A stretch of 64,000 bases of DNA from an uncultured Candidatus Saccharibacteria bacterium (GCA_964525295.1 CAZGEO010000001.1:73671-137670), one strand, 5' to 3'. Numbered from the stretch's first letter, positions 4,161-4,474 are shown. The notes: a model not told the origin generated them from the sequence alone. Program-made: numbers and translations.

Positions 4161-4474
4161 TTTTCAATTTCTCTCTTTCACTACAGACCAAGCCTGCTTG
4201 TTTTTTGTTACGCTCAAGAACCGAAATGAAAAAGCTGCTAAAGAGGGAAATTGAAAAATGGGCAGGGTATTGAGGGAGTCGAAACTCAAGGAAAATGTAG
4301 CTACCTACATTCGACGAAGAGCGGGGCTGCGCATAACAACCTTTAGAAATTCAATGTGCAATTTTCGTGACGAGCGTGCGTAATTTGACCATCCGTTAAC
4401 CAGAACCCTACTAGATTAGCGAGTCTGAAAATTGGTGGGTAGCCGACTCCCGTTTCCAGCCTTTCAATTTTTCT
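4161..4474 (+). repeat. tRNA-3'-flanking element copy 2 (after tRNA-Thr-GGT)
   Basis: CGACTCCCGTTTCCAGC at 4444-4460 duplicates tRNA positions 56-72 at 4143-4159, followed by the flank tttcaattt.tct on both sides. Hairpin AATGTAG-CTAC-CTACATT at 4294-4311. Core AGAGCGGGGCTGCGCATAACAACC at 4318-4341. Junction AAATTGGTGGGTAGCCGACTCCC. Confidence 0.7.

Follow-up and report, generated by a model that had tools for sequence, protein, structure and literature searches.

Structured elements behind tRNA genes in a Dojkabacteria clade carry a segment complementary to the T-loop of the adjacent tRNA

tRNA genes and repeated elements in the window

The window analyzed here is a 64,000-nucleotide stretch of DNA from an assembly named for an uncultured Candidatus Saccharibacteria bacterium (GCA_964525295.1, CAZGEO010000001.1:73671-137670). 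It holds seven tRNA genes, four of which are directly followed by a homologous element; no element lies behind tRNA-Arg or tRNA-Val, and no further tRNA gene was found in the 9 kb upstream of the window. In total, six copies are present in the window: four are intact, one is a decayed tandem copy, and one is partial. The elements are 85–300 nt long overall and about 245–265 nt in this genome, in which the stretches listed below span about 300 nt. The stretch at 4270–4345, which the initial annotation had proposed to encode a structured RNA, starts 110 nt downstream of tRNA-Thr(GGT) and belongs to the element at that gene, whose features are as follows.

4048–4076: promoter-like site of tRNA-Thr(GGT), TTGCCA-17-TATAAT
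4087–4160, plus strand: tRNA-Thr(GGT), target gene, T-loop TTCGACT
4161–4443, plus strand: element (4161–4460 with the tRNA 3' copy); its first ~15 nt are duplicated native trailer; conserved left end CTTTCACTACAGA near 4179, right end GGTGGGTAGC at 4434–4443
4274–4283, plus strand: guide GGGAGTCGAA, anti-T-loop
4325–4330, plus strand: 5' strand of helix B, GGCTGC, pairing with GTAGCC at 4439–4444, before the junction
4359–4434, plus strand: helix C, CAATTTTCG with CTGAAAATTG; the insert separating the two strands varies
4444–4460, plus strand: copy of the 3' part of tRNA-Thr(GGT), CGACTCCCGTTTCCAGC, from T-loop C56 to the acceptor end

The remaining copies and their target genes are the following.

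2463–2536, plus strand: tRNA-Thr(TGT), target gene
2537–2831, plus strand: element behind tRNA-Thr(TGT); guide 2682–2691, hairpin 2702–2721, tRNA 3' copy 2813–2831
20397–20470, plus strand: tRNA-Gly(GCC), target gene
20471–20784, plus strand: element behind tRNA-Gly; guide GGGATTCGAA at 20626–20635, hairpin 20646–20663, tRNA 3' copy 20766–20784
20787–20832, plus strand: terminator-like hairpin GGGTTGGTGTTCATCTGAAAAGATGGATAGCAACCC and T-run, following the Gly fragment
56784–56869, minus strand: tRNA-Leu(CAG), target gene
56501–56783, minus strand: element behind tRNA-Leu; guide GTGACTCGAA at 56658–56649, hairpin 56638–56619
56521–56501, minus strand: tRNA 3' copy of the Leu element, GTTCGAGTCCCTCCTTCGGCA
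56178–56346, minus strand: decayed second element, in tandem with and distal to the Leu element (17 bits, E 0.03)
61283–61425, plus strand: partial, rearranged copy behind tRNA-Cys (61211–61282), nhmmer E 0.29

All intact copies lie directly 3' of a tRNA gene, share its orientation, and terminate in the last 17–21 nt of the cognate tRNA; this position rule was seen directly at the four tRNAs of the window and, in six related assemblies, at 11 tRNA loci. The repeat begins at C56 in family A; within the window, three copies start there (CGAnTCCC...) and the Leu copy at G53. Across units its left edge falls inside the T-loop, and the repeat starts between G53 and A59 and runs to the tRNA end or past it, giving direct repeats of 17 to 54 nt. 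At tRNA-Thr(TGT) the direct repeat measures 54 nt with one mismatch (2518–2571 against 2813–2866) and therefore takes in 35 nt of trailer, and in the Thr-GGT copy ~15 nt of duplicated trailer follow the tRNA 3' copy. Because the repeats that directly flank these two copies include native trailer, one end of the duplication is fixed at C56, while the other end varies. The subfamily in the window has a conserved left end, TTCACTACCGA ... GGTTACGC, and a conserved right end, GGTGGGNAGC. The decayed distal element at the Leu locus carries a guide, GGGAGTTG, and a degenerate fragment that are both of the Thr-GGT type, and the partial copy behind tRNA-Cys has kept the AATGTA..TACATT hairpin and GGTGGGTGAATCCCAC and is devoid of helices B and C. 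Purifying selection on the Leu fragment was considered and rejected, as the extra similarity (repeat D7) corresponds to the left ends of the two tandem elements.

None of the 85–300-nt units contains an ORF. No integrase, transposase, or reverse transcriptase domain was detected in the 46 ORFs of the window that were scanned or among the genes called around related loci. Three ORFs beside element-bearing tRNAs had no Pfam match above the cut-off (3466–4047, plus; 61420–61839, minus; 62098–62844, plus), and the 193-residue protein encoded by the first had no homologue other than itself among 5.8 billion clustered proteins. Elsewhere in the window, paralogous ORFs of ~240 residues (53413–54141 and 55171–55881, both minus) flank a gene resembling GDP-mannose dehydratase (repeat D12). 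Intergenic repeats with a period of 8 or 16 nt, built on TAAAGCnn or its complement CTTTATCG, occur at 12621–12746, 35450–35541, 48109–48165, and 61126–61157; some of these arrays flank tRNA-Val and tRNA-Cys, and their sequence is unrelated to the tRNA-linked elements.

No sigma-70-like promoter was predicted for the elements. A hairpin terminator stands between tRNA and element in three related loci (L006, L010, and L093), and the copies of the window have a T-run alone at that place. A terminator-like hairpin followed by a T-run, GGGTTGGTGTTCAnCTGA...GGATAGCAACCC, is conserved between species and across different tRNA loci, at 20787–20832 of the window, at 10731–10785 and 13267–13312 of L093, and at 11344–11392 of L010. 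In L093 it stands behind two tRNAs, and compensatory changes are seen in the variant of L010. It may represent another repeated module, one that moves along with the elements or was captured by them.

A conserved fold and its match to the T-loop

Run on the tRNA-sense strand of the four intact copies, RNAalifold gave a three-way junction of 40 pairs in six helices, with compensatory change in 17 of the 40 pairs. The span 4270–4345 constitutes just the 5' third of this fold, which extends over 4268–4462 in the Thr-GGT copy. The outer helix, helix A, is formed between the internal GGGAnTC(G) and the tRNA-derived (C)GAnTCCC; in the Thr-GGT copy the first 8 nt of the guide (7 pairs in the alignment consensus) pair with 4444–4451. 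Inside helix A branches the hairpin that had attracted attention at first, AATGTAG at 4294–4300 with CTACATT at 4305–4311 and the loop CTAC, closed in this copy by CTC (4285–4287) with GAG (4319–4321). The initial annotation had described stem variants with preserved pairing, and all of them were found again: the same AATGTAG/CTACATT stem in the Gly copy (20646–20652/20657–20663), AACGTAAG/CTTACGTT in the Leu copy (56638–56631/56626–56619, minus strand), AACAACAA/TTGTTGTT in the Thr-TGT copy (2702–2709/2714–2721), and AATGTA/TACATT 3' of tRNA-Cys, near 61378–61398. Related genomes add AATGTAC/GTACATT (L010) and GGACATAAT/ATTATGTC (L006). Double changes retain the pairing, and in a nine-member alignment the seven pairs of the hairpin are 92% paired with changes on both sides in five of the seven.

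The sequence that follows the hairpin had been called near-invariant. Three intact copies contain its core, GCGGGGCTG, without change (at 2731, 4321, and 20673), but the fourth, the Leu copy, reads GCGGGAACG. The description was overstated, because the spacer between CGAC and the core is 5 nt rather than the 4 nt given and the Thr-TGT copy lacks CGAC. A further exact occurrence of GCGGGGCTG at 48366 (minus strand) lies within the peptide deformylase gene and was dismissed as chance. The GGCT of helix B sits within this core and pairs with AGCC, replaced by GAAC/GTTC in the Leu copy. Helix C, which pairs GCAATTTTCG with CTGAAAATTG, has changes on both sides in eight of its 14 pairs.

The identical architecture was obtained for seven members from four genomes when each was folded singly. 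The covariance model built on those seven, R1, recovers nine members at E<=0.03 and gave no match at E<=1 on 679 kb of unrelated loci; the Gly element has its model core at 20620–20784 with 163 bits. In the alignment of the nine members, all family-A sequences out of about 16 units in all and fitted to the model, 84.8% of the pair cells hold standard pairs, as opposed to 71.3% after shuffling (0 of 500 shuffles) and 35–43% in controls with slid partners. Changes on both sides occur in 23 of the 40 pairs, and none of the 500 shuffles reaches the observed pairing or covariation. The fold is also present in four related Dojkabacteria genomes, and the unpaired junction nucleotides CAAGGAGAA and TTCGACGA are conserved across species.

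These observations argue for a structure adopted by a single nucleic-acid strand, either RNA or single-stranded DNA, and the covariation excludes a palindromic protein site on double-stranded DNA. The initial annotation had argued for an RNA helix over a protein-binding DNA site; the single-strand structure is borne out, and the strand may be RNA or DNA. The sense and antisense strands have similar fold energies, and the excess of G-U over A-C among the helix cells (11 versus 4) is a weak indicator in an alignment fitted with an RNA model. Read cautiously, the data still define a well-supported structured family for which Rfam has no entry.

The internal strand of helix A has a second property. 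Its consensus, GGGAnTCGAA, is antisense to T54–C63 of the cognate tRNA, and we refer to it as the guide. The variable base of the guide pairs with T-loop base 59 in nine of nine members (CG, GC, and UA, three times each), and each guide matches T54–C63 of its own tRNA at 8–10 of 10 positions, one more than it matches any other T-loop variant. The guide GGGAGTCGAA is a perfect reverse complement of T54–C63 of tRNA-Thr(GGT), a 10-nt match with p<0.001 by shuffling, and perfect guide matches of 10 nt and 8 nt are each significant individually. The invariant 3' GAA of the guide complements T54-T55-C56. Since T54 and T55 are absent from the tRNA fragment at the end of the element, the guide, reaching across the insertion point, fits the intact T-loop better than the fragment. 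The match could also have arisen, or have been maintained, passively, by correction of a short inverted repeat rather than by choice of target.

Related loci, arrays, and differences between strains

The M50 protease encoded beside tRNA-Thr(TGT) has its nearest relatives, at ~70% protein identity, in Candidatus Dojkabacteria (WS6, Patescibacteria), and assigns the window to that group. Syntenic loci in the related assemblies carry units of 85–190 nt behind tRNA-Arg, tRNA-Thr(TGT), and tRNA-Thr(GGT), each terminating in the 3' part of the cognate tRNA; several belong to family A, and the Arg-type units form a separate sequence family. In the six assemblies of the clade whose retrieved loci include the region, at least one unit is present at 11 of the 14 tRNA loci with a readable 3' flank. 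More distant Dojkabacteria, with a protease of ~50% identity, have units at none of eight tRNAs. Searching metagenome contigs with an M50 protease profile returned 80 distant loci (<=47% identity) with almost no tRNAs, which serve as a negative control only.

Arrays and strain differences were directly observed at several of these loci. Three tandem units follow tRNA-Arg in L010, the last with a degenerate fragment, and the arrays of L093 and L095 have decayed distal units. The sister locus L011 differs from L010 by the absence of exactly the middle ~155-nt unit plus one repeat (L010 3942–4420, L011 4098–4560). The two also diverge in the 5' half of the first unit; the change-over in L011 falls on a T-loop-like motif within the unit, AAATTCGATTGCG, and this mosaic breakpoint suggests recombination at T-loop-like sequences. 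L006 and L008 encode identical M50 proteins, and a unit behind tRNA-Thr(GGT) is present in L008 only; their synteny breaks precisely at the tRNA 3' end. Within the window, the Thr-GGT copy shares 75% identity with the Gly copy; it shares 71% with the Arg copy of L094, compared with 62–63% for the Thr-GGT copies of L093 and L010. No tRNA fragment was found kilobases away from its tRNA. Neither an empty and filled pair with alignable flanks nor an excised form was found.

Short-read contigs break at element loci. Logan contigs of this clade (L012, L094, L095, and L102) repeatedly stop only a few bases from the 3' end of a tRNA, which fits the idea that the repeated tRNA fragments and elements interrupt assembly.

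Beyond the clade, genome contigs searched with GCGGGGCTGNGCNTAACAACC yielded four chance matches only, all in high-GC genomes, and three element motifs had no match in viral contigs. An unrelated metagenome contig (L046, Ga0066639_10000228; 400–612, minus strand) contains a complete tRNA-Arg with encoded CCA, followed after 17 nt by a second, 5'-truncated copy, in which 54 nt rich in hairpins are inserted exactly between T55 and C56. T-loop insertion may thus also take place outside Dojkabacteria. A literature search turned up nothing about repeats associated with tRNAs in either the Candidate Phyla Radiation or Dojkabacteria. The family is previously undescribed, and its clade is one within the tiny-genome Dojkabacteria.

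Origin of the elements

We consider it probable, at about 0.58, that the family is one of small mobile elements, non-coding and non-autonomous, which insert at tRNA T-loops, the fold being a cis-acting recognition structure. The sequence itself shows an intact tRNA gene to the left of each insertion and a second copy of the tRNA 3' part to its right; the right-hand copy starts at T-loop position 56 and can include up to 35 nt of native trailer. New units enter adjoining the intact tRNA, so that older units are displaced outward and decay, giving rise to tandem arrays. In a single-stranded intermediate made of RNA or DNA, the fold would act in cis, and a trans-acting enzyme would use it to recognize the intact T-loop across the insertion point. 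The existence of this enzyme and its chemistry, as well as recognition of the intact target by the guide, we infer from the features described above.

The direct repeats of 17–54 nt are not easily reconciled with a DDE transposase or with conservative site-specific recombination, which counts against the mobile-element reading in its simplest forms. Two mechanisms fit parts of the data. A folded attachment site that recombines like those of the CTX phage or integron attC would explain the inverted partial T-arm and the arrays but not the variable duplication. Target-primed copying would explain the fixed right junction, the variable left junction, and the variable duplication. A more specific form of the mobile-element reading, which we advance only tentatively, is that the GGGAnTCGAA of the intermediate pairs with the intact T-loop and directs the trans-acting enzyme to cut or recombine at 55/56; the 3' part of the tRNA would then be re-created by copying of the target, leading to duplications of variable length. 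Such an ORF-less bacterial element, guided by nucleic acid and restricted to tRNA genes, would be analogous to bridge-RNA or target-primed systems while being a member of no known one.

Each known system shares part of these properties. Like the islands and prophages inserted by tyrosine integrases, the elements are bounded by a direct repeat from the T-loop to the tRNA 3' end with the tRNA gene regenerated on one side, and successive insertions stand in tandem with the newest beside the gene. In contrast to those islands, the 85–300-nt units have no integrase or other ORF, related units occur at at least five tRNA species, the repeat sometimes includes 15–35 nt of trailer, and a conserved fold is supported by covariation. 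The resemblance to the CTX attP(+) hairpin (Xer-dependent IMEX) and to integron attC lies in an inverted partial copy of the target ~100–170 nt from the junction, which can pair with the junction and so mimic the target duplex, in structure being conserved over sequence, and in the arrays. Unlike those sites, the target here is the tRNA T-arm rather than dif or attI, there is no R''/R' core, the stem bears a three-way junction, and the folded form may be RNA or single-stranded DNA. An integron attC proper was rejected, there being no GTTRRRY at any junction and the loci being dispersed over many tRNA genes with no single platform.

Target complementarity in an internal segment that extends across the insertion point and varies with the target is also a feature of the EBS of group II introns, the bridge RNA of IS110, and the omega RNA of IS200/605; however, the elements have neither an enzyme gene in cis nor an Rfam match, and those systems make no long, variable target duplications. 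A group I intron was rejected on the grounds that no Rfam match was obtained, units are as short as 85 nt, and the guide is not beside the 5' exon. Among site-specific non-LTR retrotransposons and the SINE-like parasites of these, the R2 and SIDE elements share the combination of one fixed and one varying junction, variable target duplications, a conserved 3' end with a more variable 5' part, and possible co-transcription with a host RNA gene; with a bacterial host, no A-tail, and no known reverse transcriptase, the comparison is pure analogy. As in MITEs, PATEs, and REPINs, the units are short, ORF-less, multi-copy, structured, and presumably mobilized in trans, but they differ in their strict targeting of tRNA T-loops and in having no terminal inverted repeats and no duplication of fixed length. 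A MITE was accordingly rejected: the left TTCACTACCGA and the right GGTGGGNAGC are not inverted repeats, and the duplications range from 17 to 54 nt. Taken as mobile DNA of the tRNA-targeting kind, the family has an unusual target-complementary fold.

It is unlikely that the family is a structured small RNA that benefits the host and is co-transcribed with the tRNA or follows it, either acting through the anti-T-loop segment on the cognate tRNA or its gene or mimicking the tRNA 3' half. The strong covariation and the interspecies conservation of unpaired junction nucleotides would suit such a role, as would the preponderance of G-U over A-C in the helices, the conserved terminator after the fragment at the Gly locus, and, for the window copies, the T-run without hairpin terminator between tRNA and element. 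However, the elements are absent from more distant Dojkabacteria, sister strains differ in their presence, and distal array copies are decaying. Moreover, terminators precede the element in L006, L010, and L093, no promoter is predicted, and no helix closes an acceptor stem. An upstream segment closing an acceptor-like stem with the 3' tail of the fragment, plausible on visual inspection of four copies, was rejected on duplex energies, which showed no preference for cognate over non-cognate combinations.

We find it similarly hard to regard the units as deletion scars of conventional tRNA-integrating islands or prophages, each unit being the P' and P arms of an attP, and judge this quite unlikely. 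The repeat from the T-loop to the tRNA 3' end is a classic mark of one class of tyrosine-integrase sites; at about 130–300 bp the units have the size of a whole attP, such sites typically give tandem arrays, and the L006/L008 synteny break falls exactly at the tRNA 3' end. Against this, a coding remnant is found in none of about 16 units at 15 tRNA loci of seven assemblies, no tRNA fragment lies kilobases from its tRNA, no integrase domain is encoded nearby, and unit sizes are discrete rather than scattered. Copies at different tRNAs within a genome are also more alike than copies at the same tRNA across species, 15 and 35 nt of native trailer are duplicated in two copies, and the three element motifs are absent from the viral contigs searched. 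An intact tRNA-integrating island with a tyrosine integrase was rejected in turn, for the T-loop repeat is there but an integrase gene in the element is not.

Local tandem duplications of tRNA genes that decayed into pseudo-tRNAs, with no mobility involved, are very improbable as the source. The truncated tRNA-Arg copy of L046 with its 54-nt insertion at T55/C56 (z = 21.9) is of this kind, and the Thr-GGT unit of L009 begins with GCTGGAA, the acceptor 5' strand. However, on neither strand does any Dojkabacteria unit show similarity to the rest of its tRNA outside the repeat (all p > 0.09), and the unit bodies at different tRNAs are mutually homologous. The lack of similarity past the repeat largely refutes a pseudo-tRNA origin for the Dojkabacteria clade.

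It is hardly credible that the elements descend from the tRNA-like domain of tmRNA or mimic it, an idea for which the initial annotation had only short word resemblances: ARAGORN found no tmRNA and no tag peptide in the window, no Rfam tmRNA model, standard or permuted, matched any of the four copies at the gathering threshold or at E<=10, no alanine-type acceptor stem or closing helix is present, and the resembling words, such as GGGATTCGAAACCC, are the reverse complement of the T-arm of the adjacent tRNA and vary with that tRNA. None of the loci proved to be the true ssrA of the genome.

A covariance model of the family, which is absent from Rfam, is now available. If guided homing to T-loops holds true, selfish DNA would have a novel means of exploiting a genome's most conserved sequence without disrupting the gene, and the elements would explain both the breaks of short-read assemblies at tRNA genes of this clade and the accumulation of tRNA 3' fragments. 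The enzyme that moves the elements would then be a candidate programmable recombinase or target-primed polymerase, in bacteria with genomes of ~0.7–1 Mb.
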